A stretch of DNA of 64,000 bases from a virus (IMGVR_UViG_3300008108_000037:4002-68001), one strand, 5' to 3'. Positions 1 to 16,490 are shown, counted from the first letter of the stretch. Translations and numbers: made by a program. The notes: generated by a model from the sequence alone, not told the origin.

Positions 1-111
1 CCTATGGATGTTTATTGGAGTGGTGCATCTCTCATAGTTGAAATGCAGAATGGACAACTCCGTAGATACTTCGGATTGGGTTCAGAAGATTTTGAAATCG
101 TTTACATATGA
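1..111 (+). CDS. hypothetical protein, 3' end (partial)
   Basis: Frame 1 open from the window edge to TGA 109-111 (PMDVYWSGASLIVEMQ...IVYI). Confidence 0.5.
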   Translation, partial: PMDVYWSGASLIVEMQNGQLRRYFGLGSEDFEIVYI

Positions 112-296
112 TACGTAGAGACTTTCCCAAAGACAATATCAGTCCAAGAAACCACGAGGGCAAAGTAATTGGAGGTGGCATGTACTTCATAATACACATT
201 ATAAGAATGCTATTACTTCTTGTAACCTTTCCTATTCGTGCATTTATATACATGCTCAATCCCTTCGCCTCTAAGAACGTCAGAATAAAAGATTAG
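108..296 (+). CDS. small hydrophobic hypothetical protein
   Basis: ORF track; ATGA overlap with upstream stop. Confidence 0.5.
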   Translation: MIRRDFPKDNISPRNHEGKVIGGGMYFIIHIIRMLLLLVTFPIRAFIYMLNPFASKNVRIKD

Positions 297-297
297 G

Positions 298-468
298 ATG
301 GACTTGACGCTAGCTTTAGTATCCGGTATATTAGGAGTTATTGTAATTAGAACAATAGCATTGGAGATCTTAGTATTGAAACTCAAAGGCAAAAACAAGC
401 TATTATGTAGAGAGAATCACAGATTAAGAATTAAACTCCAAGAGCATGAAAACAGTACAAAAGGGTGA
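298..468 (+). CDS. small membrane protein (56 aa)
   Basis: Read manually: MDLTLALVSGILGVIVIRTIALEIL...; starts 1 nt after upstream stop. Confidence 0.4.
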   Translation: MDLTLALVSGILGVIVIRTIALEILVLKLKGKNKLLCRENHRLRIKLQEHENSTKG

Positions 469-628
469 AGACATTAAAAGAGTAAAAGATGAAGAAGCGG
501 AATTATTCGTAAAATCCCGTGGCTATCAATACGTTCCTAAATCAGTTTGGAAAGAATTTAAAAATGGACCGAAACAATCTGAAGACTCAGAACTAAAAGA
601 TAAGAAGTCCAAAGGAAAGAAAGACTAA
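446..628 (+). CDS. basic hypothetical protein
   Basis: ORF track, Lys-rich. Confidence 0.55.
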   Translation: MKTVQKGEDIKRVKDEEAELFVKSRGYQYVPKSVWKEFKNGPKQSEDSELKDKKSKGKKD

Positions 629-902
629 TGAAAAACCAACATAAAGATCTTCAGTACCGAATGCCAACATTAGGTGCTGATGTAGCAGACGTCACGGAAT
701 GAGGATTCTAAGTAGTCTTGCTAGGGAGAACGGTTTAGTCGTGTGAATCGATTTTCCCAAAAAAGAGAAGGTCCAGCTTAAAAACTGGACCTTTTCCCTT
801 GTAGGGGCCATGGTTAGGACCCCGCCCGCGTACGTGCGTATTTGCATTTTTTTCTCTTGAGGATTATTCATAAATTTACCTATCACTAAAAAATCACACG
901 AT

Positions 903-1226
903 ATGCAATTAGAAATGGAAGACTACCACAAAGTAGCAGAAATGGAGTTCATTAAATATGGTAACTCTATGGTTTTTGGAACCCTTACACAAGAAAATAT
1001 CTCTCATATTGTTCAAGTTGGCGCTTCAGTCATGATGACTAGGGACAAATTTTTACAGGGAGGTAGCTTTGTACAATCGGTAGTAGATAACGATCTTCAG
1101 GGTGCAGTAAATAGAGCAGATGCTGTTATCCGCAGAGCACTTGTATTTATGGTATATCTAAACTCACACGTGAGGGCAGAGCTAGAAATAGAAAATATGA
1201 AATCACCATCTTTTGAAACAATCTAA
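903..1226 (+). CDS. early hypothetical protein
   Basis: ORF with upstream promoter at 841-880 and CACACGATATG leader. Confidence 0.8.
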   Translation: MQLEMEDYHKVAEMEFIKYGNSMVFGTLTQENISHIVQVGASVMMTRDKFLQGGSFVQSVVDNDLQGAVNRADAVIRRALVFMVYLNSHVRAELEIENMKSPSFETI

Positions 1227-1240
1227 AGGATAGATAGATT

Positions 1241-1375
1241 ATGGAAAACGAAAAATTTCAAAAGGTAGCAAAGGCAGTTTTTTTAATAGCCGCTTTTGCG
1301 TTTGGATTTTGGATTCTCTCATTTGGATTCAGACTCATTTGGGAAGCAGCTAAATCCATGTATCTGAACTGGTAA
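1241..1375 (+). CDS. small membrane protein (44 aa)
   Basis: Read manually: MENEKFQKVAKAVFLIAAFAFGFWILSFGF...; followed by terminator. Confidence 0.65.
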   Translation: MENEKFQKVAKAVFLIAAFAFGFWILSFGFRLIWEAAKSMYLNW

Positions 1376-1562
1376 AAATCTGTCCCGGATTTTTAGAGAT
1401 GCTCCAACGGAGCATCTTTTTTTGTGGGCATCCGCAGAAGTTGCTGCACGATGCTGCAATTTCCTGAGGCGCCCCTGCGTTACGAATCGGATCAACTTTC
1501 TTTTTTCTGCATTTTTTGTAACAAGAGTTTTTTCTTAATTTGCCCCATAAACACACGACACC

Positions 1563-2018
1563 ATGAATCTAATCTATCAACTCGGGGAAAACCTATTCAT
1601 CAAAGGAGATAAGGTTATCAGCTACGAAACGCACGTAGCATCTATTAAGGATAACATCATTTACGAGTTTGGAAAGTTCTCTAGAACAACTAGCAAACAC
1701 ATTTCAAGAGTAAATCACACGACAATGCAAACTAAAGTCTATTATGAAATGTTCTCCAATGCTGGAGAAAAGGCATGTCAATCACTCGTTGATGGGATCT
1801 CAAAGAAGATTCAGGGCAAAGAGAGAATGACTAAAGAAAGAATCAAAGAACTCTATGATGCTGGGAGAAAGAAGATCTCAGAGAAACATGGAGAAGTTTA
1901 TGACACTGAACCACGTGGGCACATCGCACACCAAATTAGCAAAGCTCTAAGAGACTCTGGTTATGGATTCTATCTTAACTCTTGGGGTGATGTTGAAGAT
2001 GGTCTATACGACAGCTAA
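1563..2018 (+). CDS. early hypothetical protein, apparent fusion of two cassettes (internal start 1725)
   Basis: ORF track; FSRTTSKH motif in N-half; internal CACACGACAATG leader in frame at 1725. Confidence 0.75.
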   Translation: MNLIYQLGENLFIKGDKVISYETHVASIKDNIIYEFGKFSRTTSKHISRVNHTTMQTKVYYEMFSNAGEKACQSLVDGISKKIQGKERMTKERIKELYDAGRKKISEKHGEVYDTEPRGHIAHQISKALRDSGYGFYLNSWGDVEDGLYDS

Positions 2019-2288
2019 ATAAGTCTTTCCAATCTTTAGATTGGTTTAGGTAAGGCCTGGGTTTCTACCCGGGCTTTTTTGTGTGGATGGGTTTTGGGAA
2101 AAGTTGCATATGCTGGCTTTTTTCGCTGGGGCGCCTCAACTGATTCACATCAGCGTGTGGTGTAATTCCAAAGGGGCCATAATCGGGACCCCGCCCGCGT
2201 AGGCACGTGCGAAGAGGGAATTTATGTGGACATTTTTTCTTATCGAGGATTTTTTCTAATTTTATCCTATTAAATAAAAAGGTACATT

Positions 2289-2675
2289 ATGAAGTTATGG
2301 TTTTACGGTTTAGCTGATTGTCACGGTGTGGAATCATTCGTACACGAGGTTAGTCCAATAGCCAGAGAGCTATTTTTTGCCCCAGAGGAATCTGAGGATG
2401 TGTTAGCTGGACAATATGCGATGTGCCTAAGAGCTCACGCAAATCCACAAAGGCATGCAGTAGCTTATCGTGTGAAAATGGAGGAGAGCAAATCGATCGA
2501 AGTACAAGAAATGTTAAAGAAGACTCAGTATGTTGAGGCATTGAGATTCATTAAAGAGAACATGGAAGAACTTCAATTGGGCACTCAATATACTACTAAA
2601 AAAGCAGCGGAGAAAAACTGGAATATGATACCAAATCCAGATTTGGATCCGTACCATGAAGATAATGATTCTTAA
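2289..2675 (+). CDS. early hypothetical protein
   Basis: ORF with own promoter. Confidence 0.8.
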   Translation: MKLWFYGLADCHGVESFVHEVSPIARELFFAPEESEDVLAGQYAMCLRAHANPQRHAVAYRVKMEESKSIEVQEMLKKTQYVEALRFIKENMEELQLGTQYTTKKAAEKNWNMIPNPDLDPYHEDNDS

Positions 2676-2886
2676 ATCTTTTATGGCTTGGATTTCGGGA
2701 GTGAAAGAAAAGCCGGTTGAACCCAAAGTCAAGAAAACCTTTCCTCCTCGAGATGCTAGTCTTTGCTCATTCAACGAATGGACAGAGATCACCCAATTCT
2801 CCTCGCTCTATGAACCCAATTTCAGGAACCAAGAAAGATTAGATCCCATCAAAAAAGAAGTGAGAGAAGCCAACAAGCATTTTTAA
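2656..2886 (+). CDS. hypothetical protein
   Basis: ORF track, overlaps upstream gene end. Confidence 0.55.
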   Translation: MKIMILKSFMAWISGVKEKPVEPKVKKTFPPRDASLCSFNEWTEITQFSSLYEPNFRNQERLDPIKKEVREANKHF

Positions 2887-2930
2887 CTTCAGCGGGGATT
2901 TATTAGATTTGCCTTATTTAACACACGACT

Positions 2931-3575
2931 ATGCACAACAAATCTCACAAACTCGATTCCGCTTCCTTCCGCACATTCATGTTTCAAGGTAAGGCATTCT
3001 TTACCCTGCACAACATCGAGAAGGACACCCACATCACATTCCGGATTCAAACACCCAAGCGTAAACGCGGCCAACCTGAAGAGACCCGTTACTTTGAGGT
3101 CTACGTCAAGGCTTTGAATGACAAGTACGCAGGCAACAAATATGTTGGACGCATTGACCGCAAGGAACGTTCCTTCAAACCATATGGTTATGTGGAGCGT
3201 GACCATGTTGGTATTCAAACTATTGAATGGTTGATTCGCAATTGGAGTCACTTGGAGGAATATGAGAAAGGAGAGAAGCTAGCAATCTATCACTTGGGCA
3301 CATGCTGTAAATGTGGATTACCTCTCACAGTCCCTGAAAGTATTCAAAATGGGATTGGACCACAATGCATGAAATATCGGGAGGGTAAATCCATTGACCT
3401 TCTTAAAGAGCTTGGCTTCTATAAGCCAGCAACCGAATATGCGGAGTTGGTCTATAATGCTCTTGAACTACGCCCGGATCTTTTCGATAAAATCTTTGTC
3501 CCTGATGTTATCCGTAGAGCTAACAAATGGTACAAGCTCATGGATAAACTGAGCAACGATATAGGTCTTTTCTAA
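2931..3575 (+). CDS. DUF6011-like Zn-finger protein
   Basis: CCKCGLPLTVPESIQNGIGPQC matches the CxxCGxxLTxPxSIxxGIGPxC pattern; ends DIGLF. Confidence 0.75.
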   Translation: MHNKSHKLDSASFRTFMFQGKAFFTLHNIEKDTHITFRIQTPKRKRGQPEETRYFEVYVKALNDKYAGNKYVGRIDRKERSFKPYGYVERDHVGIQTIEWLIRNWSHLEEYEKGEKLAIYHLGTCCKCGLPLTVPESIQNGIGPQCMKYREGKSIDLLKELGFYKPATEYAELVYNALELRPDLFDKIFVPDVIRRANKWYKLMDKLSNDIGLF

Positions 3576-3796
3576 AAGACAGTTTTCATAGGTACAACGA
3601 CCCTGGGTTTCTACCCGGGGTTTTTTGTGGAGTTAGGTAAAGTGAATTTTCTCGGACCGTCCGAGAATTCGGCGAGGCGCCCCGGCGAAGTTCAGGTGTT
3701 TTCAGGTGTTAACAGTCTTTACGGGTTGCATTTTTTTCCTCGAGGAAATTATTATAAATTGGACTTATTAAATTACTTACTAAACCCATTATCAAA

Positions 3797-4003
3797 ATGA
3801 CACACCAGTTTAACTTCTTTGAATCCCTAGATGGAAGGGAACTATTCCATTGGTTAGGTACACCATGTTTTATTTCAGATTACTACCAGAAAGAAAACGA
3901 TAATCTAGTTCAGATTACATCTTATGATGGTAGAGTATATGATGATGTCCCAGAGAGGGATTTGGAAAGTATGTCTCCTGAAGACATGGTAGGATTAGTT
4001 TAG
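3797..4003 (+). CDS. early hypothetical protein
   Basis: ORF between promoter and terminator. Confidence 0.75.
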   Translation: MTHQFNFFESLDGRELFHWLGTPCFISDYYQKENDNLVQITSYDGRVYDDVPERDLESMSPEDMVGLV

Positions 4004-4251
4004 ACTTTTTTCATAGGTTAGATCAAATACACCGGCCTGGGTTTCTACCCGGGCCTTTTTGTGTGGACCCATTTTGAACCAGGACTTTCACAGAGACTTC
4101 ACAGAGACTTCGCGGTGAGGCGCCCCTGCGGTTTTATTTGCATTCACACCCGGAACATAGCATAAGGTTTGGCGAGAAAAAAATTTTCAAAAACATTTTT
4201 TAATTTGGAGGTTTATTATTAATTTAGCCTCGTACTTAAAAAAACACGACT

Positions 4252-4518
4252 ATGTTACAAACTTCAACCCCGGGACCATCAATCCCACAAGCTTCAATCG
4301 AAGCTCTCAAAGAAAACCTTAAGAAGGGACCAGTTCGTTTCGCATTCCGTAAAAAGGATGGATCACTCAGATTAGCCTATGGAACTTTGGACATTAACAA
4401 AATTCCTTCCGCTAACCATCCAAAGGGTAATTCAGCTTCTCCTAAAATTCTTCCATTCTATGATTTGGAAAAATTCGCTTGGAGAAGCATTCAAATTGGT
4501 CAACTCGTTTTCAGTTAA
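4252..4518 (+). CDS. SH3 beta-barrel / WYL-like domain protein (DUF2693-like)
   Basis: LKKGPVRFAFRKKDGSLRLAYGTL...FYDLEKFAWRS pattern. Confidence 0.75.
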   Translation: MLQTSTPGPSIPQASIEALKENLKKGPVRFAFRKKDGSLRLAYGTLDINKIPSANHPKGNSASPKILPFYDLEKFAWRSIQIGQLVFS

Positions 4519-4741
4519 AAAGAGGAGTTAATAAATCAAGAGCCTGGGTTTCTACCCGGGCTTTTTTGTGGGGTAAGGTTTGGGAATTTTGCTAGCGTAT
4601 GTGAATCGAGACGAGGCGCCCCTACCGATACACATACGGATCAGGAACTGGGTCGAAACTTTTTTCCGAAACATTTTTGTCATTCGAGGATTTGTCATAC
4701 ATTAGCCTCATAAAACAATTTTTTAATCAAAAATCACACAC

Positions 4742-5176
4742 ATGAAATTAACTAAAGCGCAAGTTGAAGCTGTCGTTTCTGAAGTAAATGATCGTATCAA
4801 CAGAGCAACACAAAGCCAAATTCATCTTTTCAAAGGCAAGGATGAATGGGAAAAAATCAAGACAATAGTTAAAGAGTATCAAAATCTTGAGAAGAGCTTA
4901 GAGAAGGCCAAAGAAGCGGTAGAGAAGTTGGAAAGCGATTATGAGGACTTTGAAAGTGATGTTGAAGCAAGGATCCAAAGGTTTGAAAAGAAGTTCGGTG
5001 TGGATGTAGATTGGAAGTGGATTGAGGATAATGAGGAGCCCACTTTCAAAATGGAATTCAAAGATCTCACCCAGAAAATCGAAAGAACAGTTACCTTGCT
5101 GGGGATTGATAGTAAAGAAAAGATTACCAGTGATCTTCTAATTGAGAAGATGGTAGATAAGTTTTCAACTGTGTAG
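4742..5176 (+). CDS. coiled-coil early hypothetical protein
   Basis: ORF between promoter and terminator. Confidence 0.8.
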   Translation: MKLTKAQVEAVVSEVNDRINRATQSQIHLFKGKDEWEKIKTIVKEYQNLEKSLEKAKEAVEKLESDYEDFESDVEARIQRFEKKFGVDVDWKWIEDNEEPTFKMEFKDLTQKIERTVTLLGIDSKEKITSDLLIEKMVDKFSTV

Positions 5177-5382
5177 TAAATATAGATTTCAAAGATCCAA
5201 GGAGCCCAGATTTAGGTCTGGGTTTTTTGTGGGGTAAGGTTTGGTTTTTTCGGAGACGGCGTGAAGTAATACGATGAGGCGCCCCTACCCGCAATATTGG
5301 GATTCGATTCGTTAGATTTCTTTGAGGAAACATTTTATTTTTCCGTATAACTTTTATAGATTTACGGCATAAAATAAAACAT

Positions 5383-5613
5383 ATGCTTACTGAAGAACAA
5401 AGAGTAATCTTTAGAGAAATCTTAGATCTGAATTGGGAGTTTAGCCACACAGAAGAGAACTGGGGCGTTAAATGGGATATAGCCAGAAAACTCAATCAGA
5501 GAAAGAAAGATCTTAAAATGAGTATGGGTGAAGAAGCTTATGATCACTTCATGAACATGGGCAGGGAAATGTTCTCCCCGAGGAAAGAAGAAGTTGCCGA
5601 GGAGATTTCATAA
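5383..5613 (+). CDS. early hypothetical protein
   Basis: ORF with own promoter. Confidence 0.75.
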   Translation: MLTEEQRVIFREILDLNWEFSHTEENWGVKWDIARKLNQRKKDLKMSMGEEAYDHFMNMGREMFSPRKEEVAEEIS

Positions 5614-5670
5614 AAACATTTTTAATTTCAAGAGTAGTAAACTAAATTTGCAAACTAAAACGTAAACAAT

Positions 5671-5979
5671 ATGCCAAGGAGACCAAAGAAAGGAAAATCA
5701 TCAGATCTGTTGTTAAGAAAACTAATTGGTAAACTTGATCCGATCGAGACAACCCTCTTAAGAGAACGTATAGTTAGAATCTGTGAAATGAGCAAGCAGG
5801 ATATGTTAATGAATCCCGATAAGTATTCAAGGGGAATTATTGCTTCGCATTTGTTAGAAGCCTTTTATAATAAATGTTTAGCCCAGCTGAGTTATGAGAG
5901 CAGAGATTCTGCAGAGCGTGCACCATCCACTGTAACTGAGCCTGTGGTTGAAGAAAAAGAAGAGTTAGTGATTTCTTAG
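5671..5979 (+). CDS. early hypothetical protein
   Basis: ORF; TAAATTTG box upstream; terminator downstream. Confidence 0.75.
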   Translation: MPRRPKKGKSSDLLLRKLIGKLDPIETTLLRERIVRICEMSKQDMLMNPDKYSRGIIASHLLEAFYNKCLAQLSYESRDSAERAPSTVTEPVVEEKEELVIS

Positions 5980-6308
5980 TTTGTTTTTTGATTACAAGGG
6001 AAGCCGGGTTATTCCGGCTTTTTTTGTGGGGAGGGGTATCCCGGGAGACCCCGCACGCGTATGAGCGTGCGAAGTAGATATATAGTAACGACTCCTGAAT
6101 CCTTACCCTGACGAAAGCAAAAACCCGGACGTTTCTACGTTCGGGTTTTTTATTGTCCCAAACTTTTGATGTTACAACATCTGTCTGCGGGATGAGGCGC
6201 CCCTGCTAGTTAGATTGTTTTAAAACAACTTAACTATGGTTTTAATTTGGATAACATTTTTAATCCTTGAGGAATTTCGTTAATTTAGCCCTTCTAAAAT
6301 CAAAGATT

Positions 6309-6596
6309 ATGTTATTAGATGAAGAACCAGTGATAACGGAAGAAGAATTATCAGATGTCTCGATTGAAGATCTGCTTGGTTCATCATTAGTTGTCTATAA
6401 CGACGATGTAAACACTTTTGAATGGGTAATTGAGTGCCTTTGTAGCTATCTAAAGCATTCACGTGAACAAGCAGAACAATGTGCTTGGCTTATTCACACC
6501 AAAGGGAAATGCAAGGTTAAAAGCGGAACTAAAGAGGAATTAGAACCCTATAAAGATGCTCTCCTCGATTCTGGCTTGTCAGCAACGATCGAGTAG
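6309..6596 (+). CDS. clpS: ATP-dependent Clp protease adaptor ClpS (Bacteroidota type)
   Basis: LVVYNDDVNTFEWVIECL...QAEQCAWLIHTKGKCKVKSG signature; ATG 6309 preferred over TTG 6267. Confidence 0.9.
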   Translation: MLLDEEPVITEEELSDVSIEDLLGSSLVVYNDDVNTFEWVIECLCSYLKHSREQAEQCAWLIHTKGKCKVKSGTKEELEPYKDALLDSGLSATIE

Positions 6597-6648
6597 CATT
6601 TTTTTATCCAGAGGCAATTTAATAAATTTGCCTCATAAAATCAAATGT

Positions 6649-6831
6649 ATGGGAACAATTTTCAAAAATCTACTTCACAAAATCTCAGGCGATTCTAACC
6701 TCAACATTCCGTTGGTAGTTAGGGTTCGCAGGGTTCAAATGGAGCGCGAAGGCTTTAACACCGACCATATTAATTGGGAACATTACACCAAAGTATTGGA
6801 GGCCAAAGCTGAAGTGCTGAAACAACAATAA
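6649..6831 (+). CDS. early hypothetical protein
   Basis: ATG 6649 just after TAAATTTGCCTC promoter box. Confidence 0.7.
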   Translation: MGTIFKNLLHKISGDSNLNIPLVVRVRRVQMEREGFNTDHINWEHYTKVLEAKAEVLKQQ

Positions 6832-7067
6832 GTTTAAGTGGTTCTGGTTACATAAAGACCCTGGGTTTTACCCAGGGTTTTTTGTTGGGTAAAGTCTGGG
6901 TAAAACTGGATAAGCGCTGGGTAAAGTTGCTGCGGCGCCCCGGCAGAACCGCATGAACCTGATGTACCGGTTGTACCCGATGTACCGGATGTACCGGATG
7001 TTCAGTTCGCATTTTTTTATATCGGGGAGATTTCATAAATTGCCTTATAATTAAAAATACACACGAC

Positions 7068-7364
7068 ATGGAAAAATCAGTCACACTCAATTTCAGCCAC
7101 TTCATTTGTAAGGGCACTGCACAAATCACTCTTTGGGGTGGGGATCAAGGAACAATCACTATGGATTCATTCAGAATATCGGAAGGTTACACCGATGCGG
7201 ATCTTAAAGCTTGCCTGAACGATGGCGGGTTTGGTTGTGAATCTATTGATGGTGCGGTCATTGACATTTATGCAGTTTACAGTAACTATGAATCTCAAAC
7301 AACCCGTTGGTATGAAACAAGAGTTATTGGTAGAGTTAATGAAGAGTTGTTAATGGAAGCTTAG
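7068..7364 (+). CDS. early hypothetical protein
   Basis: ACACACGACATG leader; promoter and terminator. Confidence 0.8.
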   Translation: MEKSVTLNFSHFICKGTAQITLWGGDQGTITMDSFRISEGYTDADLKACLNDGGFGCESIDGAVIDIYAVYSNYESQTTRWYETRVIGRVNEELLMEA

Positions 7365-7507
7365 GTTTGGTTATGGTTAGTTGATGAGCTTGGACTTAGG
7401 TCCAAGCTTTTTTTGTGGGGTATTGAAGAAAGCCACACGCTAGCGTGCATCGGTTGCGGCGCCCCGACCGATAACAGCTACACGCTAGCTTTTGAATACA
7501 TATAGTT

Positions 7508-7690
7508 ATGAAACACATCCGAATCTTTGAAGAGTTTGAAAATGAAGGTGAATACATTCCTCCGATACAAATAGAGTGTAATAAATGTGGATGGAATTGG
7601 AACTCCACCGAAACCAATCCCAAAGACCTGTATATCTGTCACAAGTGTGGAGCGGATAATAAGGATTTTTACAAACCGGAAGAAGAGTAG
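7508..7690 (+). CDS. Zn-ribbon protein with capsid-targeting-like N-terminus
   Basis: MKHIRIFE; CxxC...CxxC; flanked by 14-bp direct repeats. Confidence 0.75.
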   Translation: MKHIRIFEEFENEGEYIPPIQIECNKCGWNWNSTETNPKDLYICHKCGADNKDFYKPEEE

Positions 7691-7802
7691 TTGCGGCGCC
7701 CCGGCGGTTGGATACAGGACAATGCCCTATACTTTTTTTCTTGCGGCATTTTTTCTTTTCGCCTTTTTATATTACTTTTATGTCATACTAAACAACACGA
7801 CT

Positions 7803-8177
7803 ATGACAGATCAAGAACAATTCGAGCATCTCAAGAAAGAGATAAAGAACCTCAACGGAAAAATCTTTATCTCATTCGTTCATCCAGGACTTTATGGTCC
7901 ACTCAGAAATCTCAACTTCATTTTAGAAAACCCAGATCCGGTAGAACTAAACAAGTATCTTAAGGAAGGCTGGCACAGAATAGTTGAAGATATTTGGAAA
8001 GAAACCCTAATGGCAACTCAACCTATGGTCATGCCTTGGGAAATGACTTTAACTGCTGAAAAAACCCCAAAGGTTTTCAAAACAATTAAAGATGCTGAAA
8101 CCCATATTAGGCATTTACTTAAGACCGGAATTAGTATGACTCAAGATCCTTTCTATTACAGATTAGGAATTCACTAA
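7803..8177 (+). CDS. early hypothetical protein
   Basis: ACACGACTATG leader at 7803 inside the longer ORF-track call. Confidence 0.8.
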   Translation: MTDQEQFEHLKKEIKNLNGKIFISFVHPGLYGPLRNLNFILENPDPVELNKYLKEGWHRIVEDIWKETLMATQPMVMPWEMTLTAEKTPKVFKTIKDAETHIRHLLKTGISMTQDPFYYRLGIH

Positions 8178-8460
8178 CCTCAAAACTTTAAACCCTTGGA
8201 AAAACATCCAAGGGTTTTTTGTGGGGTAAGGTTTGGGAAATTCGCTAGCGGATGTGAAACGGGATGGGGCGCCTCAGCAAGTATACATCAGATCTACACA
8301 TTTTCAGGAAGGGGTATCCGGGGAGACCCCGCCCGCGTACGTGCGCTGCGAGGCGCCTCGGCAAAGTCAACCTATGGTTTACCTATGGTCTATTCCTTTT
8401 TGAGGCATTTTTTTGTTTTACCCCAATTGATTATATTTGGGATAACTAATACATCTTTAT

Positions 8461-8652
8461 ATGACACAAGAAAAAGACCCATTAATTGGAAAAAGAATTA
8501 AACTAATTAGAATGGACGATCCTTTCCCGGTTGAACCAGGTTCCGAAGGAACTATAGAATCAATTGATGGGATGGGACAGATTTGGGTACATTGGGATAA
8601 TGGAAGAGGTTTAGCCATTATACCGGGTACGGATGAGTATGAAATAGTTTAA
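8461..8652 (+). CDS. DUF4314-like protein
   Basis: RIKLIRMDDPFPVEPGSEGTIESIDGMGQIWVHWDNGRGLAIIPGTD pattern. Confidence 0.8.
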   Translation: MTQEKDPLIGKRIKLIRMDDPFPVEPGSEGTIESIDGMGQIWVHWDNGRGLAIIPGTDEYEIV

Positions 8653-8925
8653 GTGTGTTGAAGTCTTTTGTTTAAAAGTTTAAACAAAAGATTAAACGAG
8701 CCTGCAGAGGCTCGTTTTTTTTTGTGGGGTAGTATTCCAAACCTCAAAAAATAGCTACACGCTAGGTTTTGAAGCTGAGGCGCCCCGACTGGAAAAAACC
8801 AAAAAACCCACTTTATCCAGAAAAGGCGCCCCTGCGGTATAGAGGCGGACAAAAACTTTTTTCGTGGGCATTTTTTTATTTCGCCTCTTTATAGTATATT
8901 TACACCATAATCAAATATCACACAC

Positions 8926-9237
8926 ATGACAACATCAATTAAAAAAGCAAGCAACTCAGCTCTCTCAAACGGAACATCTTTTCACGGACACGTTTTCAGG
9001 GCAACACCCCAACAACTCACTGACCTTTTTGGACCAGCCCATTATTCAGCTAATGATGGCGAGGACAAAAGCAATTTTGATTGGACAATGTTATTGGGCG
9101 AGGAAGTTCCGTTTACAATTTATGATTGGAAAGAATACCGCACATTAAAAATGAATGAAAAGGTGGAATGGCATATTGGGGCTAAAGACCCTTTTTTTGC
9201 AGGTTTGGCTTTATCTGAAGTAATCAAGCTTTTATAG
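8926..9237 (+). CDS. early hypothetical protein
   Basis: FTIYDWKEY/WHIG phage-type motif; cassette context. Confidence 0.8.
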   Translation: MTTSIKKASNSALSNGTSFHGHVFRATPQQLTDLFGPAHYSANDGEDKSNFDWTMLLGEEVPFTIYDWKEYRTLKMNEKVEWHIGAKDPFFAGLALSEVIKLL

Positions 9238-9435
9238 GAACAGAGGAATTTAGAAACCCGGATCTTTTTAAGGTCCGGGTTTTTTGTGGGCTAAGGTTTG
9301 GGAATTTTCTCGGACCGTCCTAAAATCTGGCGAGGCGCCCCGGCCGGTATGCAAACTTTTTGCATACTTTCCAAATTGCATTTTTTTCTTTCGGGGAGAT
9401 TTATTAATTTAGCCTCATAATCAAACACACACACT

Positions 9436-9840
9436 ATGTCACATTTTCAAGTTACCCTCGGACAACAAATTTCAGCTTTCATCAACGAAGGCAAGATCAT
9501 TGGAGATTACGAGCACTGCTCAGGCTTCTATGATTGGTTCTGTTCAGACCGCGCATTAGAGGCCAAAGCCAAATCACTAATGCCTAAGGTTATCAAATTC
9601 GTTAAGGCCAAAGGAATCGACCCTAACCGCCATTACGTGTGGTTCAAAAACAACTGTCCCATTAACGGACCTTTGTATGATGATTTCCGTATTGCCTCGC
9701 TAGAGACCGGAGATAATGTGTTCTGTGTTACACCCAAATCCGGACACACCGACAGAGCAGAAGTTTACGGCCAGGAGAATCTTTGGAACGGGCCAATCCA
9801 TCAGGCTAACACCTGGACAGAACTAATAAGAGCAATTTAA
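9436..9840 (+). CDS. early hypothetical protein
   Basis: YDWFC...FKNNCP...LYDDFRI; cassette context. Confidence 0.85.
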   Translation: MSHFQVTLGQQISAFINEGKIIGDYEHCSGFYDWFCSDRALEAKAKSLMPKVIKFVKAKGIDPNRHYVWFKNNCPINGPLYDDFRIASLETGDNVFCVTPKSGHTDRAEVYGQENLWNGPIHQANTWTELIRAI

Positions 9841-10038
9841 TTTTTCATAGATAGGTTGATGTTTTTAAAGGCCTGGGATTTTATCCCAGGTTTTTTTGTG
9901 GGGTAAGGTTTAGGAAATTTGCTAGCGTATGTGAATCGAGACGAGGCGCCCCAGCATGTATGCATGTGAGCTGCACACTTGCATTTTTTATTATCGGGGA
10001 AATTTTATAATTTTACCTCACACTTAAATCACACAAGC

Positions 10039-10224
10039 ATGCAAGCAAACTTAGAAATTGAAATCCCAGAGGATTTCATCACAGCAGGAAAAGAACTAGC
10101 TCTTTCAGATGCAAGGATCCAAGAGATCTTTGAAGGATGGTTACACCTTATAATTTATGAAAGGATTATTCCTGATTATCTAGAAGATATGATACAGGAT
10201 TTACCTGAGGAAGTGAAGGAGTAA
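10039..10224 (+). CDS. early hypothetical protein
   Basis: ATG 10039 after CACACAAGC leader. Confidence 0.7.
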   Translation: MQANLEIEIPEDFITAGKELALSDARIQEIFEGWLHLIIYERIIPDYLEDMIQDLPEEVKE

Positions 10225-10566
10225 GTATTTAAGATCCCGGGATTCACATCTCGGGATTTTTTGTGGGGTAAGGTTTGGAAAAAGCTAGCGTGTAGCTGAA
10301 AACTGTTGCGGCGCCCCAGCAAGTATGCATCAGGTTTGCATACTTAACTTCTCTTGCATTCGGGGGATACCCGGGAGACCCCGCGCTCGTGCGAGAGAAA
10401 AAAGAGTGAATCAACCAAAATCGATGATCGATCGATTCAAATCGTTGCGGCGCCCCTGCAGGTTAATCCATTTTTAGACATTATTATAACCTGAGGGTAT
10501 TTCGGGGTACATTTTTCTTTTTGCCCCGGATTTCATATATTTACATCATAATTAAAAACATACACC

Positions 10567-10746
10567 ATGAGCAAAAGGGATTTAATCGATCTAACCAAAC
10601 AATTTCTCCGTCAAGAGGGCATCACAGATGACTCTTACATCATTTCATTACAAGGACCTACCTTTATCTTCACTTCAGGAATAAAGTTAGCTACGGGCAT
10701 TAAAAAGAAGTTAAAAGAAGCTGGTGTGTTGGTTATGGGAGGATAA
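10567..10746 (+). CDS. early hypothetical protein (59 aa)
   Basis: Read manually: MSKRDLIDLTKQFLRQEGITDD...; promoter, ACACCATG leader and terminator. Confidence 0.7.
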   Translation: MSKRDLIDLTKQFLRQEGITDDSYIISLQGPTFIFTSGIKLATGIKKKLKEAGVLVMGG

Positions 10747-11078
10747 GTTTATCCTTCCGAAAAAGAAAAAACCTGGGAGACCAGGTTTTTTTGTGGGGTA
10801 AGGTTTGGGAAAGAATCAAAAAATGGATTATCATTCAGAGGCGCCCCGACTGGAAAAAACCAAAAATTGGGTTTTATCTAAATAAGGCGCCCCTGCGGTA
10901 AAAACCAAAAAAAACCAATTTTTCCAAATGAGGCGCCCCGGCGGTTTGCAAATCCAAGGATTTCTGGGGTTATAATGTTGGAAAAGTTAAAGTCGTGTTA
11001 GAACGAATAACAATTTCAATTGCATTTTTTTGTTTCGAGGAAAATCTCTAATTTAGCCTCATTAAAACATCACACACC

Positions 11079-11309
11079 ATGAAAAAATTCTTACAAACCA
11101 CAGCATCTTGGTCATTCCTCTTATTTGGAATCCTTACCATTTTAATTCTTTGCGCCGAACCACCCACTGGCCCAGCAGATGAACCTTATATTGAGCATGC
11201 AATGTTTGTCAAAACCTGGGGTGGGATAATTCTCGGAACCTGGATTGGCTTAATAGTCACTGCTGTGACCTGTGGATCCATTTTAAGGTTTAAATATGAA
11301 GATGACTAA
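11079..11309 (+). CDS. early membrane protein
   Basis: Two hydrophobic segments; cassette context. Confidence 0.75.
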   Translation: MKKFLQTTASWSFLLFGILTILILCAEPPTGPADEPYIEHAMFVKTWGGIILGTWIGLIVTAVTCGSILRFKYEDD

Positions 11310-11367
11310 AGCATTTTTTCCCTTCGGGGAAATTTATTAATTTAGCCTCGTACTTAAACAACATCCC

Positions 11368-11496
11368 ATGAAAGCACCCTTTAGATTAACCTGTAAAGGA
11401 GGCGTCTACGAAGCAGACACCTTCTTCTCCCTCGTCATAGAAGTTCTTAAACACCGATTTTGGCATTTAAGAACTCACGGTAAATGGATAGACTAA
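11368..11496 (+). CDS. early hypothetical protein (42 aa)
   Basis: Read manually: MKAPFRLTCKGGVYEADTFFSLVIEVLKHRFWHLRTHGKWID; own promoter and terminator. Confidence 0.7.
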   Translation: MKAPFRLTCKGGVYEADTFFSLVIEVLKHRFWHLRTHGKWID

Positions 11497-11748
11497 TTTC
11501 TTCCCCCCGTTTCTCAAACCAGACCTAGTGTCTGGTTTTTTTGTGGGGTGGGGAACCCGGGGAGACCCCGCACGCGTACGAGGGTTTTTGAGGCGCCCCA
11601 ACCAAGAGAGCTAAAAAACCAAATTGCATGCATGCATAGGAATAGGCGCCCCTGCCCGCTTGCACATCTTTCACACATCTTTTTTCCCCTGCATTTTTCT
11701 TTCTCGAGGAAAAGTCTTAATTTAGCCTCATCATTAAATAACCACACT

Positions 11749-11925
11749 ATGTTAAAAGAACAATTCAACCGAGTAATCGAAATCTACCAATCTCTAGATG
11801 GAATCGAACAAGCCGCCTTCTCCTTTTGGAGTTTATGTGTAGCTGCATTTTATGGTACACTGGTTTACATTTTGTATTTAATAGGAAAAGAAGGGATAGA
11901 AAAATTAAGGAGAAGTAGAAGTTAA
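11749..11925 (+). CDS. early membrane protein
   Basis: CACACTATG start at 11749; one TM. Confidence 0.7.
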   Translation: MLKEQFNRVIEIYQSLDGIEQAAFSFWSLCVAAFYGTLVYILYLIGKEGIEKLRRSRS

Positions 11926-12227
11926 TTCACACAAGTATTCATTCATTTTAAAAAAGTCCCAATGGGACTTTTTTTGTGGGGTAAGGTTTGGGAAAAGTGA
12001 AAAGTTAGGATTATCATTCCGAGGCGCCCCGACTGGAAAAAACCAAAAAACCAAGTTTAACTTGAAAAGGCGCCCCTGCTGGAAAAAACCAAAAAACCCA
12101 ATTTTTCAAAATGAGGCGCCCCTGCCCGCTAGCCATTCGCTAATGGCACTTGTAACATTTTCTCTCGGCATTTTTTCTTTTCGCCTCTTTACATTACTTT
12201 TACCCTATCAATCAAAAATCACACACA

Positions 12228-12446
12228 ATGAACACAGCACTTAAAATGATTCTCGCCGGAGTATCCACCGCCATCCTTCTTATTCTCATGCTTTGGAAGG
12301 GATTTGAAAACGCTCCCATTTTCGAAAGCGTAGCAGCTGAGATAACCTTCGCTTCCATTCTTTTCGTCGCCACCATGCTATTCACCCTTGGGGGTATTAG
12401 AGAGTTATACCATAACTCCTATGGGAAGCGACCCCAAAAATTTTAA
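12228..12446 (+). CDS. early membrane protein
   Basis: Two TMs; CACACACAATG leader. Confidence 0.75.
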   Translation: MNTALKMILAGVSTAILLILMLWKGFENAPIFESVAAEITFASILFVATMLFTLGGIRELYHNSYGKRPQKF

Positions 12447-12448
12447 CC

Positions 12449-12748
12449 ATGGATTGTCAGTTGTGTAAGTATAAGAGAGATGAACCCGGCACGCCTTATG
12501 TGCGTTGCCGGGCCATCAAAGAACATCCCGCTTTCCACAAGCTCTCCATAGATGAAAAGGGAGCGTTAGAGTTAGGCGTGTCAGCCACAGGAAGGTTTCC
12601 TTATCTCACCAAAGACAACAAACCACTGATTGAGATTCATAAAGGTCCAGACTGCTTCTGGCCCACATCATATGATCCGGCAGATATTGGAGATTGCCAC
12701 TTCATGAAGCTCCGCCCAGATGCTGTCTCTTGGGAGAGGATAAAATAA
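12449..12748 (+). CDS. Cys-rich hypothetical protein
   Basis: CxxC...C...FWPxxYDP...C phage-type motif. Confidence 0.75.
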   Translation: MDCQLCKYKRDEPGTPYVRCRAIKEHPAFHKLSIDEKGALELGVSATGRFPYLTKDNKPLIEIHKGPDCFWPTSYDPADIGDCHFMKLRPDAVSWERIK

Positions 12749-12814
12749 TCCTCAATAACATTTTTTTCTTTTGGAGGTGTTTATTAATTTACATGCACAC
12801 TAAAACACTTTCCC

Positions 12815-13042
12815 ATGTTAATTCATCTTCCCTCTGTCGCTTCTTTCATCGACACCTCAGACGCCTTAGTTTACGCCGCTTACCAAAACGGTAACGTGGA
12901 TCACGATTCCGCCACCTCTATAGCAGACTGTTCAGAGGTCTGGTTTTCTTTGCTCTCTCACCGAGACGCTGAGATAGTGGAGATCGTGGAAAGATATCTA
13001 CAGCTGAACATCAGCTTTCTAGTTAGAGGACTCGCAAATTAA
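12815..13042 (+). CDS. early hypothetical protein
   Basis: ORF with own promoter. Confidence 0.7.
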   Translation: MLIHLPSVASFIDTSDALVYAAYQNGNVDHDSATSIADCSEVWFSLLSHRDAEIVEIVERYLQLNISFLVRGLAN

Positions 13043-13224
13043 TGTCCAGTACAGCATAATCTTATGAACGGAATTTCTTACATTTGCCTCTCAATACAAA
13101 CAAAAGACTTTAAAGAATAGTTCATAGGTGTGTTAGTAAGTGTAACTCTCCCTTCGGGGAGAGTTTTTTTTGTGGGGTGAACCAGAAGGGTCAAAAACGG
13201 TGACCGCTTTTGACTGCGCGGCGA

Positions 13225-13519
13225 GGCGCCCCGGATAGAAAAACCCAAAAATTGGATTTTATCTAAATAAGGCGCCCCTGCTGGATTTTTTTAAATTTTT
13301 GGTTTTTCCAAAAAGGGCGCCCCTGCTGAAAAAACCCAAAAACCCTAGTTTTTCCAAATAAGGCGCCCCTGCCGCAAAACCTCTCTATTCTTTCTATCAG
13401 CGGTGCCCCTGCATGGAAGTTTAATTTGGATTTCTTGCATTATCCAAATAGGGCGCCCCTGCCGGGAAACCTTTTTTTGGCTTTTTTAGGTTTTTTGGAT
13501 TTAACCCCTGGGGCACCCC
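13225..13519 (+). repeat. tandem array of 7 GG(C/T)(G/A)CCCC(T)GC units with A/T-tract spacers
   Basis: Unit spacings 46,45,46,40,50,60 bp. Confidence 0.9.
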
Positions 13520-13554
13520 TGCCGGCTAACTCTTTCTAGAAATGCCATTTATGG

Positions 13555-13745
13555 GGATGGCCAGGGGGCTTAAAAGAGGGTGTTTTTTAGGGGGCCAAAA
13601 AAGGGGTGTTTTAAGGGGGGTAAAATAAGGGGGACGGTACCCCCTAGGCTCCCCCCGTTTTTAGGGGGGGTTTTGGGCCCATTTAGGACCCCTTTTTAAG
13701 GGGGGCCGTATATGCCTTGTTTTACTATATTTTGGGGGAGGGGTG
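13555..13745 (+). other. G-run/A-T-run tract with G-quadruplex potential
   Basis: G3-G7 runs starting 13564,13578,13590,13603,13615,13629,13664,13700. Confidence 0.75.
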
Positions 13746-13838
13746 CCTTGTGGATTGGAGAGATGAAATATAGAGCTGGGATTAGTCGTGGGGGTCCCTT
13801 CTTTCTTCTCGTTTTTCTTTTGCAGTAGAAATAGCTCC

Positions 13839-13972
13839 TACCAATGCGCGTACGCACACTTAATAACGGTCATACTATGACGCAATTTTATAATTTAAGT
13901 ACGACACGATTTTATAATTTTAATACGGCCACGCGCACGTATATTAGTAATACCAATGCGCGTACGCACACT
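13839..13972 (+). repeat. 22-bp perfect direct repeat TACCAATGCGCGTACGCACACT enclosing an AT-rich core
   Basis: 13839-13860 and 13951-13972; ATTTTATAATTT at 13885 and 13909 between them. Confidence 0.95.
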
Positions 13973-13999
13973 GGATATCCCTCCATTTGGAGGGACAGA

Positions 14000-14048
14000 G
14001 TGGGATTTCTTTATAAATCGACCGGGCCAGTGTGGGCTTTCTTTATAA
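14000..14048 (+). repeat. 17-bp direct repeat GTGGG(A/C)TTTCTTTATAA
   Basis: 14000-14016 and 14032-14048. Confidence 0.85.
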
Positions 14049-14125
14049 GTGGATAAGGATGGACCTTATATCAGGTGGTAGTTTCCCTAGGGGTTTGGAA
14101 TATATAGGGTAAATAATATTCGATT

Positions 14126-14473
14126 ATGAGACACCTACGTATCTTTGAATCCCACACTGAGCAGTTGCAAGAAGCAACCCCGCCCAAAACAGAGTCCAAG
14201 GAATCCATTCAGAACAAGAGAATGGCTAATTTCTTTAACAAGCTCTACAAGATGAATCTGCCTCTAGATGGCAATGGGAAAAACCCAGAGTACATCAAAG
14301 CTTTCACTCGTTACTGTGGAGAAAAGAAGATTACCACCCATATCTGTAAAAAGGGAGATGGCTTCTGTTCTGATCTTCAAGCTGGAGAAATCACCGTCAA
14401 AGATGCCCAGATGCGAGCAAAATTTGAGAGGAGTGTGAAAAACAATGCTCTTGCCCTCCTAATGAAACCTTAA
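14126..14473 (+). CDS. putative internal head protein
   Basis: MRHLRIFE N-terminus; GAATATATAG box upstream. Confidence 0.75.
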   Translation: MRHLRIFESHTEQLQEATPPKTESKESIQNKRMANFFNKLYKMNLPLDGNGKNPEYIKAFTRYCGEKKITTHICKKGDGFCSDLQAGEITVKDAQMRAKFERSVKNNALALLMKP

Positions 14474-14527
14474 GGGTGAACTAAGATTTTCTAAGAACCA
14501 GACCTAGCGTCTGGTTTTTTGTGAGGT

Positions 14528-15079
14528 TTACTCCGTGAAGTAAGTGTTTCTGAAGTATCTGAGAGGACGGGCAATCGAAGTGTCTCTTAGATGTATAACA
14601 GTCATATCCCTTTCAAATCTACGTTGGGTGATCCAACCTTTAATTCTTTGAATGTCTTTGTTGTACCATCCTCCCACATCGGGTGGTAATTCGAGATCTC
14701 CGTTAATCCTGAGGACTTGCTCCTCCACGCTCTCCACACGGCCTAAGACCTCTTGACAGAGAGCTATGACCTCTTCAGAGGGAAAGGAGGTTAAGCTTCC
14801 TTTGTGCCACATTCTGTCTGGATCTGTGTCAAACACGATGTGCTCTCTCAGCTCTTGTAGGGGTATTTCGAACTCCACTATCCATTCCCCATAGATGACT
14901 TTGTTGGGATCTAGAAAGGCACCCATTCCAGCTCCTTCTGCACTGGCTCCCTTTCTTTGGCTCTCATCCCAGCCGGATTTGAGGATAGTCTGGGCATCTT
15001 CCTCGGATCTTGTCCCGTGGTAGATCTTTAAACCTCTCCGAGAGAGCAGGAAGGCTTCAAATAGTTGGAGATGTCTCAT
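14528..15079 (-). CDS. putative ADP-ribosyltransferase-fold internal head protein
   Basis: MRHLQLFE N-terminus then LKIYHGT...ILKSGW...GAGMG..; YHGT motif typical of H-Y-E ARTs. Confidence 0.55.
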   Translation of the reverse strand: MRHLQLFEAFLLSRRGLKIYHGTRSEEDAQTILKSGWDESQRKGASAEGAGMGAFLDPNKVIYGEWIVEFEIPLQELREHIVFDTDPDRMWHKGSLTSFPSEEVIALCQEVLGRVESVEEQVLRINGDLELPPDVGGWYNKDIQRIKGWITQRRFERDMTVIHLRDTSIARPLRYFRNTYFTE

Positions 15080-15157
15080 ATGCTTTATATATTATAGATC
15101 ATGGAGATTGTTACCTTTCCTCCTCTTTGGGCTATAAGAGGTAAATAAAAGAATCTC

Positions 15158-15697
15158 ATGAAACAACTCTTTTTCAAGCTCCGCAATTGGCTCTATAAAG
15201 ACAGCCGACTCACTATCCGTAAAAAGGCTGACAGTATGCCTGATGGAGGATTGAATAATCCTTTCACTGTGAACATGCTTACCTTCAGTCCCCCTGCCAC
15301 TCAGACCAAAGTGCTCTCTAAGGCCCATGAGGAGACTTCCCTCTCTGGCACCTATGGTCTGAATCCCTGGGACATCTTTAATCCTTTTAAGACCAACACT
15401 AACATTGTGTGGCTGATGATGTACCAACAGGGATTGATTAAAGATGTCACTGCTGAGATCGTGCATCCCAAAATGGGCAGTAGCTTTGCTGTGACAGTCA
15501 ATAATCCTCAGGTGGGCACTCCCTATGCTGTGTTCTATAACTCTCCCATGGAGCTGGCCATTCCTTCTCCTCTAGTGGGTCATCGAGTGGATCTGAATGA
15601 AAACGGTAAAGCTTTCTGGATGAGTGAGAAAGGCATTCAAGTGGAGGTGCAACGTTTACAGGACTCTGATTGCAAGGAGTTCTTAGTTATCCTTTAA
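15158..15697 (+). CDS. hypothetical protein
   Basis: ORF track. Confidence 0.75.
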   Translation: MKQLFFKLRNWLYKDSRLTIRKKADSMPDGGLNNPFTVNMLTFSPPATQTKVLSKAHEETSLSGTYGLNPWDIFNPFKTNTNIVWLMMYQQGLIKDVTAEIVHPKMGSSFAVTVNNPQVGTPYAVFYNSPMELAIPSPLVGHRVDLNENGKAFWMSEKGIQVEVQRLQDSDCKEFLVIL

Positions 15698-15708
15698 AGA
15701 TATGTTCC

Positions 15709-16368
15709 ATGCAGATTAGTTACACTAAATCCGGCATTTTAGGAGGGGATGGTGTGGTTTTTTATAATCCACTCTATGATGGGGGAGGAACCACCATCGG
15801 ATATGATATGTGCAAGCATCCATCCATCCTAAAACACCTCTCCAATATAAACAACACTTTGGAGATATGCTCCGGTCCCGGATTTATTGGCTTCTATTTG
15901 TTATTTAACGGTCTAACAAAAAAATTATGGCTATCCGATAAATTTGACGGTGTGCTGCCGGATATTCTCAAAACAAATGCATTCAATCAGGTAGATGTGA
16001 AATTTATTCATTCAGATTGTTTTCAAAATTTTGAAAAGTCCTTAAAATTTGATTTGATAATCAGTAACCCTCCCCATGTCCAACATGATATGGAATGGAT
16101 TAGAGACAGAAAGACCGAGGAGGAAAAACACGCAAGTTATAGAATTAATCTTGATGAGGATCTAAAATTCCATCGGGAATTCTTTGAAAATGTCAAGAAT
16201 CATCTCAATCCCGGAGGCAAAGTAATATTGGTCGAAAACCAAACATACATAAGCTATGCAACCATTATGGATCTAGCAGGATCTGGATTTGAGTGTGAGG
16301 TTATAAATGGGGTATATGCCGAGAAGAATTTTTATTATATCGTCCTGACTCTAGGTACCAGAGATTAA
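15709..16368 (+). CDS. class I SAM-dependent methyltransferase (PrmC/HemK-like)
   Basis: LEICSGPGFIG motif I; FDLIISNPPH motif IV; ATG 15709. Confidence 0.85.
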   Translation: MQISYTKSGILGGDGVVFYNPLYDGGGTTIGYDMCKHPSILKHLSNINNTLEICSGPGFIGFYLLFNGLTKKLWLSDKFDGVLPDILKTNAFNQVDVKFIHSDCFQNFEKSLKFDLIISNPPHVQHDMEWIRDRKTEEEKHASYRINLDEDLKFHREFFENVKNHLNPGGKVILVENQTYISYATIMDLAGSGFECEVINGVYAEKNFYYIVLTLGTRD

Positions 16369-16490
16369 TAAAGAGCTTCCTTCTCAGCCCGGGCCTAGTG
16401 TCTGGGTTTTTTTATGTGCTAGGGGGCCTTGGGGCCTTGACGGCTCGGATGTCACGGGATCAGCATAGAGGAGGGATCGATATATAAATC

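Follow-up and report, generated by a model that had tools for sequence, protein, structure and literature searches.

A terminator-coupled word, variable between lineages, as a candidate protein docking site in the early-gene cassettes of an uncultured giant freshwater phage

The window analysed here is a 64,000-nucleotide stretch (bases 4002-68001) of the 132,001-bp viral contig IMGVR_UViG_3300008108_000037, which is rated 40% complete, and its left part is occupied by a block of small early genes arranged as cassettes on one strand, in whose linkers a short GC-rich word recurs. This boundary word (GAGGCGCCCC; asymmetric consensus GA-GGCGCCCC-KGC) is maintained by selection, tied to the intrinsic terminator that precedes it, variable between lineages and clustered where the block ends. 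With moderate confidence, it is regarded as a docking site for a co-evolving, phage-encoded and probably dimeric protein, which would mark or insulate the early units and would have been added to cassettes resembling the promoter-early stem-loop (PeSL) cassettes of T4-type phages.

An earlier note on this DNA, made from the sequence alone, had drawn attention to the palindrome GGCGCC, reported as 31 intergenic copies in AT-rich DNA with none after 13.5 kb. All 31 exact copies were recovered where that note had placed them, the last at 13452, against 2.15 ± 1.46 (maximum 6) expected in the 64-kb window from dinucleotide-preserving shuffles. Across the contig, GGCGCC occurs 34 times, every copy lying within bases 1-17,458, a stretch of the block in which approximately 1.3-1.6 copies would be expected. 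The remaining 114.5 kb contain none, although only 0.9-2.9 copies are expected there; the enrichment inside the block is thus significant while the absence outside is not, and avoidance of GGCGCC outside the block was dropped as a candidate explanation. The composition of the DNA is approximately 40% G+C, so that it is not strongly AT-rich, and the intergenic placement fails for a copy at contig base 3295, left of the window, which lies within an open reading frame (ORF). The 31 copies of the window comprise 28 GGCGCCCC on the + strand, two reversed words (GGGGCGCC) and one GGCGCCTC, while the 34 of the contig comprise 30, three and one, respectively. Both reversed words of the window are followed approximately 45 bp further on by a GGGG..GAGACCCC element, as had been noticed. 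The words that stand outside arrays are:

1468, 3676, 4119, 4615, 5278, 6196, 6934, 7458, 7695, 9334, 9945, 10310 and 10449 (feature span 1468-10456), + strand: single forward words, GA-GGCGCCCC-KGC
8352, + strand: variant forward word, GGCGCCTC
2128-2135, - strand: reversed word, GGGGCGCC, at the same distance from its own terminator as forward words, followed by a GGGG..GACCCCGC element
8266-8273, - strand: reversed word, GGGGCGCC, with a GGGG..GAGACCCCGC element after it, ahead of the forward GGCGCCTC at 8352

The linkers follow a single order, namely gene or genes, intrinsic terminator, word, private repeats and promoter. The word was present in 20 of 20 terminator-bearing spacers, at 38-54 nt (most often 42-45) from the terminator tail, with a distance of 47-49 bp from GTGGGG to the start of the word, whereas the seven to eight promoter-only junctions contained none. 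No fixed distance separates the last word from the promoter (37-101 bp), and the gap between terminator and promoter amounts to 100-300 bp. Words go with terminators and not with promoters or with spacers generally; this strongest of the positional rules was absent from the earlier note. The terminators are 20 GC-rich hairpins followed by a T-run, with the tail TTTTTTGTGGGG(TAAGGTTTGGGAA), and the 19-mer GTGGGGTAAGGTTTGGGAA of this tail occurs in eight copies at ≤3 mismatches against 0.02 expected. Approximately 25 variable bases, often including a private palindrome, separate the tail from the word, and a further 30-100 variable bases, including private short direct repeats, separate the word from the promoter. 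The components are exemplified by the following features:

1-13170, + strand: window part of the early-gene cassette block, approximately 30 small genes on one strand (from ORF map, terminators and promoters)
4562-4586, + strand: example of the terminator tail box TTTTTTGTGGGGTAAGGTTTGGGAA, with copies at 4568, 5229, 8221, 9286, 9898, 10263, 10793 and 11976 (≤3 mismatches)
11023-11081, + strand: example of a cassette promoter and leader, GCATTTTTTT..TCGAGGA..TAATTTAGCC..CACACACC-ATG

The block continues for at least 7 kb to the left of the window (contig bases 1-4001 and L216:1-3036); the metagenome contig L216, which is 99.98% identical, adds 3 kb of similar cassettes and one more reversed word, bringing the block to at least 20.5 kb. 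A promoter-like box, GCATTTTTTT..TCGAGGA..TAnnTTTR, was recognised by sequence at approximately 25 junctions, 20-30 nt upstream of the start codon; the leader that follows is short, CA-rich and devoid of a Shine-Dalgarno sequence. Sigma-A promoters of Bacteroidota carry TTTG and TAnnTTTG in a -33/-7 layout, which we take to be the layout of the cassette promoter. This promoter and leader style, together with genes of the type IX secretion system (T9SS) type elsewhere in the window, suggests a Bacteroidota host. By Pfam, the recognised cargo of the block consists of ClpS-like, DUF6011, WYL_2 and DUF4314 proteins and a 60-aa zinc-ribbon protein, while the remaining genes are ORFans.

A megablast search of positions 1-14,000 against 50,697 phage records returned no match among cultured phages, and pattern scans of IMG/VR, in which near-identical records may have been absent (17-mer tail box, array unit, two words 36-40 bp apart, A-tract array, terminator plus word) returned chance or coding-repeat matches and no true relatives. 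A related-locus search with the 407-aa protein encoded at 17687-18910 likewise yielded nothing. The phage is common in fresh water, its stretch being present in 20 metagenome runs from 14 studies, and among the public runs listed as containing it there was none of RNA. A metagenome scan for a terminator tail, 36-54 nt and a word identified five close relatives (L140, L176, L181, L208 and L219) at 81-89% identity. In the orthologous spacers of these relatives, the 8-mer word is conserved in 197 of 200 cells (98.5%), compared with 81% for the 20 nt upstream, 71% for the 20 nt downstream and 85.5% overall. Among the paralogous spacers of the window, the word is similarly invariant while its flanks are unrelated. 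It is this invariance amid diverging flanks, in orthologous and paralogous spacers alike, that identifies the word as selected. The words end at the block end in L176 and in a further relative, L259, as they do in the window.

Eight distant contigs with available DNA were obtained through homologues of P0001, the gene to the right of the block (49-57% identity), and of the DUF6011 protein (37-79% identity). In these, the linker architecture and the terminator-to-word distance are unchanged, and the coupling of words to terminators was confirmed in L261, L262, L256 and L257, while the word itself differs by lineage:

L261 and L264, also this phage: GGCGCCCC, centre CG
L262: TC-GGGGAGCCCC, centre AG
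L263: TC-GGGGTGCCCT, centre TG/CA
L256, L257, L265 and L266: GA-GGAACCCC-(A/C), centre AA

The site at the level of the family is GRGG-NN-CCCC, a near-dyad of G-runs whose central dinucleotide is constant within a genome and varies among lineages. This replaces GGCGCC as the motif, and the palindrome is incidental to it; a NarI-type restriction site was ruled out, the conserved unit not being the palindrome. Reversed copies account for three of 33 words here, four of 16 in L257 and five of 18 in L261, and occupy the same slot as forward copies, while inverted word pairs occur in L257. The word tolerates inversion and is a near-dyad (GGGG/GAGG-NN-CCCC), which is what a dimeric DNA binder would lead one to expect, and its centre, constant in each genome and different by lineage, fits a co-evolving phage reader better than a host factor.

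Pairs of phage promoters and polymerases typically vary in this way from lineage to lineage. The word could alternatively be a phage-specific transcription signal, either as a promoter element or as the target of a phage sigma factor or phage RNA polymerase by which the units are read again at a later stage, with the arrays as tandem promoters. The word heads every transcription unit, mostly in the orientation of the genes (30:3 here, 11:0 in L256), and in L256 a sigma-70-family protein gene (L256:681-1526) lies just left of the short (approximately 6.4 kb) cassette block. However, reversed copies sit in the unchanged slot of several spacers, with inverted pairs in L257, and the position of the word is anchored to the upstream terminator rather than to the downstream gene or promoter. 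Furthermore, a conserved second element is lacking (only a loose TTT at +33 to +35), and no sigma factor was found in the 132-kb fragment, making this alternative rather unlikely. A sigma-54 or extracytoplasmic function (ECF)-type promoter was rejected by reasoning, as its spacings do not fit.

An oriented 8-mer that becomes denser toward a possible DNA end might also represent a Chi-like or nick-type polar site, governing how a host exonuclease, or a nickase of the phage, acts on the end of the DNA that enters, and T5-type phages do possess sequence-specific nicks. Such a role is highly improbable given that reversed copies share the slot, that the position relative to the terminator is strict, and that sister lineages, whose host types are probably the same, have different words.

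In the docking-site reading, GA-GGCGCCCC-KGC would be one lineage's version of a family-wide GRGG-NN-CCCC site at which a protein docks on duplex DNA. In the linkers that join early transcription units, the word belongs to the side of the terminator, and because it follows terminators and not promoters, a role at boundaries is proposed, in which the bound protein would mark or insulate the ends of units, for example as a roadblock backing up the terminator or as an organiser of the DNA between strong promoters of the same direction. A strong barrier at the end of the early block would then be provided by the clusters of words in its final spacers, and the arrays would expand and contract by tandem duplication of whole units. 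We infer that the word is bound by a protein, that this protein is of phage origin and that its binding has an effect on the units.

Several points weigh against this proposal. The insulator or roadblock role is purely conjectural, and the orientation bias described above would be expected if the word were polar, as promoters and Chi-like sites are, while a symmetric binder does not require it. The uniform central dinucleotide could, in part, reflect concerted evolution by recombination between linkers. Additionally, Pfam identified no DNA-binding domain in approximately 38 proteins encoded in the block and on its right-hand side. Targeted searches of the 132-kb fragment (approximately 40% of the genome) for ParB (ParB_N), ParA, Rep, HU/IHF, sigma-70 and large terminase gave no match, and the fragment contains no capsid, terminase or polymerase gene; the earlier statement that no binding protein is recognisable thus agrees with these searches.

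The DUF6011 protein, encoded at 2931-3575 behind a promoter-only junction, is the one block product still shared with the AA-word lineage. It was modelled with AlphaFold2 (predicted local distance difference test score, pLDDT, of 79); neither Foldseek nor VIA-align matched the model to a fold in the PDB (best Z 4.8), and a search of the Atlas returned only its own family. The protein is therefore neither supported nor excluded as the reader. In two AA-word relatives, arrays lie immediately upstream of the DUF6011 gene (L265:907-1696 and L266:1516-1668, with periods of 62-98 and 75 bp, respectively).

Dyad symmetry beyond the core of the word is weak, with a flank score of 2.8 against 2.1 at random centres and few extended palindromes. 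Single-strand folds of the word regions are no better than those of shuffled sequences (z-scores -2.4 to +0.4), Rfam at a permissive E-value gave no match at the gathering score, and ARAGORN reported nothing notable. On these grounds, a hairpin, a cruciform and an RNA element were ruled out, and the word is considered a signal of duplex DNA.

Toward the end of the block, words occur in clusters, with eight intervals of 45-46 bp between neighbouring words in the window:

8779-8832, + strand: two-unit array (words 8779 and 8825), 46-bp period, A-tract/T-tract filler; both units are present in L208 and L219
10840-10939, + strand: three-unit array (words 10840, 10886 and 10932; 46 and 46 bp), with two units in L219
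11592-11652, + strand: word pair (11592 and 11645), spacing 53 bp
12023-12122, + strand: three-unit array (words 12023, 12069 and 12115; 46 and 46 bp)
13225-13523, + strand: terminal array, exact words at 13225, 13271, 13316, 13362 and 13452 and two degenerate units
13402 and 13512, + strand: degenerate units of the terminal array, GGTGCCCC and GGCACCCC, respectively, the latter within GGGGCACCCC at 13510-13519

These clusters correspond to those described earlier, except that the seven terminal copies resolve into five exact and two degenerate units and that the pair at 11592/11645 had not been listed. The described rise in copy number toward the block end was likewise observed, here and in relatives, word multiplicity near the block end being found in L219, L176, L261, L256 and L257. 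Whole units are gained and lost among close relatives: compared with the window, L219 has gained a 52-nt unit at 9330 and lost a 45-nt unit at 10897, and the terminal array has 5+1 units in L176 (five exact words and a GGGGCACCCC end unit, as in L140) against 5+2 here. L259 has five words at the site of the terminal array and none in its other 11.5 kb.

The spacing, expected to be conserved in related phages, is so only at close range. The 46-bp period is retained in L219, L208, L140/L176 and L259, and this register is confined to relatives of at least 81% nucleotide identity. Among distant relatives, the arrays have periods of 39-63 bp (L261), 75 bp (L266) and 62-98 bp (L265), with 75 and 92-98 bp among the arrays of the AA-word lineages, and the relative whose DUF6011 protein is 79% identical has its word clusters at 39-63 bp. 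As the periods of distant relatives differ, the exact 46 bp appears to be the mark of recent tandem duplication in one lineage and not a conserved register, duplication and loss of whole units accounting for the exact period in this lineage. Consequently, of the proposed binding site for a cooperatively wrapping or spreading protein, the selected, sequence-specific site is upheld (197/200 against 71-81% in the flanks), while the 46-bp cooperative register is not; nor was specific support obtained for the suggested centromere, replication and recombination roles.

The centromere sopC of the F plasmid, which is bound by SopB, is an array of 43-bp units, and prophage N15 has scattered centromere sites near promoters. 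The resemblance lies in tandem units of approximately 43-46 bp with one short dyad-like site each, and in the scattered single sites in the case of N15. The word could accordingly be an iteron of a replication origin or part of a sopC-like centromere, with dispersed copies titrating the binding protein, as seven direct units adjoin a non-coding tract that is conserved and an AT-rich stretch accompanied by paired palindromes. This is, however, very improbable: no Rep, ParA or ParB-type gene was found nearby or in the 132-kb fragment (approximately 60% of the genome lying outside it), DnaA boxes are absent from the block end, the period is not conserved, the phage is lytic-looking, and coupling to every terminator would be unexpected of such sites.

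The gain and loss of whole units of 45-52 nt also bears on the possibility that the word has no dedicated reader and is part of a PeSL-type recombination seam, the arrays being neutral slippage minisatellites. Cassette content varies between strains, with the joints and unit indels located in the spacers, the array periods vary by lineage, and cargo genes are almost wholly unshared with distant relatives, only two block ORFs (≥40 aa) having homologues in L255-L257. Nevertheless, a word of 8-13 nt is too short for homologous exchange while its adjoining flanks diverge, and gene conversion should homogenise the flanks as well, yet the word alone is invariant. Together with the fixed distance to the terminator and the family-wide GRGG-NN-CCCC site, both of which indicate selection of a site, this renders a mere seam distinctly unlikely.

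Beyond the terminal array, the block closes in a non-coding tract, followed by a pair of repeats:

13550-13860, + strand: block-end tract, approximately 300 bp, in which G- or C-runs (4-7 bases) recur at intervals of 11-14 bp, with A/T runs in between
13846-13969, + strand: two GCGCGTACGCAC copies (13846 and 13958), flanking an AT-rich promoter-like stretch (13870-13950) before the first gene past the block; conserved in L176

Positions 13606-13855 are 92-100% identical to L176, compared with approximately 80% in the flanks, and a nearly identical tract is found in L261. In L256 and L257, whose proteins are approximately 50% identical, the block closes with two copies of the GGGG(C/T)(A/G)CCCC type followed by AAAATAAGGGGG / TAAAAAGGCCCCC runs. 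Every lineage in which a block end was displayed possesses clustered words and a highly conserved tract of phased G-runs and A/T-runs, the tract being a cis-element conserved in this phage group. The T-run-then-G-run units have a telomere-like or G-quadruplex-prone look. The DnaA-box consensus TTWTNCACA is absent from the block end, its occurrences in positions 1-16,000 being at 6490 and, on the opposite strand, at 14434.

Depth over positions 1-16,000 was derived from the Logan contigs of four runs, in which read ends are not visible. The unitigs of the block have a depth D of approximately 19 (X10), 10 (X14), 110 (X2) and 23 (X3), and the first unitig to the right of the block end falls to about D/2 in two runs (8.8 in X10 and 5.6 in X14). 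A unitig across 13257-14009 has intermediate depth in three runs (71.6, 19.2 and 13.8) and shows no graph branch. At the left of the block, a dimorphic stretch has two variants whose depths sum to approximately D in three runs, and the halved depth consequently fits a two-copy block or, equally, two strains. The chances that the block is a two-copy terminal repeat with a physical end near 13.5-13.9 kb are roughly even.

It may further be asked whether such a repeat, or first-entering segment, as known from T5, SPO1 and Kayvirus, would account for the words, with the clusters and the G-run tract serving as a signal for injection stop, end processing or packaging and the single copies being secondary. 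This is compatible with a docking site, and precedents exist in T5, in which repeat region 3 with nine DRD direct repeats straddles the end of the left terminal repeat and is a proposed injection stop, and in the Kayvirus 812, whose long terminal repeats carry early host-takeover genes and whose repeat/unique junction has a 35-bp tandem repeat of 2 to >20 copies (PMC6445280). Along with the depth change and the 92-100% conserved, recurring tract, these precedents favour the idea. Conversely, co-occurring strains sharing the block would explain the depth equally well, the DnaA-box pairs that define the T5 region are missing, one word per terminator over 17 kb is left unexplained, and the block of L256 measures just approximately 6.4 kb, beside a sigma-factor gene. 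As an account of the word, this explanation is unlikely, albeit one that deserves some weight. It is also unlikely that a group of giant freshwater phages has a dedicated boundary system in which a co-evolving phage protein reads the GRGG-NN-CCCC words after each early terminator, and in which the word clusters and the phased tract of G-runs and A/T-runs halt host RNA polymerase or entering DNA; if entering DNA were halted, the genome would be delivered in stages as in T5, but with wholly different components.

The cassettes are most readily compared with the PeSL of T4-type phages, in which a stem-loop overlaps or abuts a promoter preceded by an AT-rich region (Arbiol et al. 2010, PMC2839356; Comeau et al. 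2014, PMC4122927). Shared with these are composite linkers of a terminator stem-loop and a host-sigma-type promoter around early genes that are small, mostly ORFans and located where the genome changes fast, and indels and swaps between relatives that fall at the linkers. In contrast, the stem-loop here lies 100-300 bp upstream of the promoter, a separate invariant GC-rich word follows the terminator at a set distance, and arrays and a special block end are present. The resemblance to T5 lies in an early block that closes in a conserved, untranslated, repeat-packed region whose repeats are more conserved than the genes, while the DnaA-box pairs and the IRC/IRD inverted repeats of T5 are missing here and T5 has no word behind each terminator. 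Kayvirus (phage K/812) similarly has early genes under host-type promoters and an array of variable copy number; however, its repeat unit is not reported behind each terminator, and its terminal repeat is proven by coverage, which is ambiguous here. The present system would best be described as PeSL-like early cassettes with an added, putatively protein-docking word that is coupled to terminators and has a lineage-specific centre, and with a conserved block end. No description of a separate terminator-coupled conserved word with a lineage-varying centre, amplified at the end of an early block, was found in the literature.

If a phage protein does read the word, the two would make up a simple insulator or roadblock, of natural origin, for strong transcription units in tandem, with a ready series of specificities (CG, AG, TG and AA) obtained by two-base swaps. 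Should the block end be a physical or entry boundary, it would constitute a second, unrelated example of how T5-like phages stop DNA transfer. In practical terms, the word and the block-end tract are markers by which the early region may be found and oriented in contigs of uncultured giant phages.

Further features of the block and its surroundings were recorded. A 183-aa protein encoded at 14528-15079 (- strand) has motifs recalling ADP-ribosyltransferases (YHGT, GAGMGAF and EFE) and the N-terminus MRHLQLFE that is common to many proteins of the phage; its DNA is approximately 99% identical to L176, and in every relative obtained by means of this protein a homologue lies next to the early block. 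A gene resembling N6-adenine-type DNA methyltransferases (15670-16368; MTS, Eco57I and N6_Mtase matches) lies 2 kb to the right of the block end. Within the block, the zinc-ribbon gene (60 aa, MKHIRIFE...) at 7508-7690 stands between the words 7458 and 7695 and lacks the customary early promoter, which gives it the look of an insertion into a linker. Private direct repeats distinguish individual spacers (6946-7000, 4075-4100 and contig bases 262-310), examples being a GATGTACCGG-like unit in four copies and CACAGAGACTT in two; an 11-nt repeat unit has been gained at 4086 in one run, and 6946-7000 shows approximately 8-fold depth with many divergent loose ends in all four runs. Finally, six early spacers carry a second element, GGGG..CC(C/G)GGGAGACCCCGC(A/C)CGCGTA..GCGTGCG, located as follows:

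795-845, 2165-2215, 6020-6070, 8300-8350, 10355-10400 and 11540-11585: second spacer element

This element, of which a cousin, GGGGTCCCCGGCAGGAGGCCGCGCATACGTGCG, occurs in relatives, may be the operator of another regulator, and its CGCGTA core recurs in the two GCGCGTACGCAC copies beyond the block.

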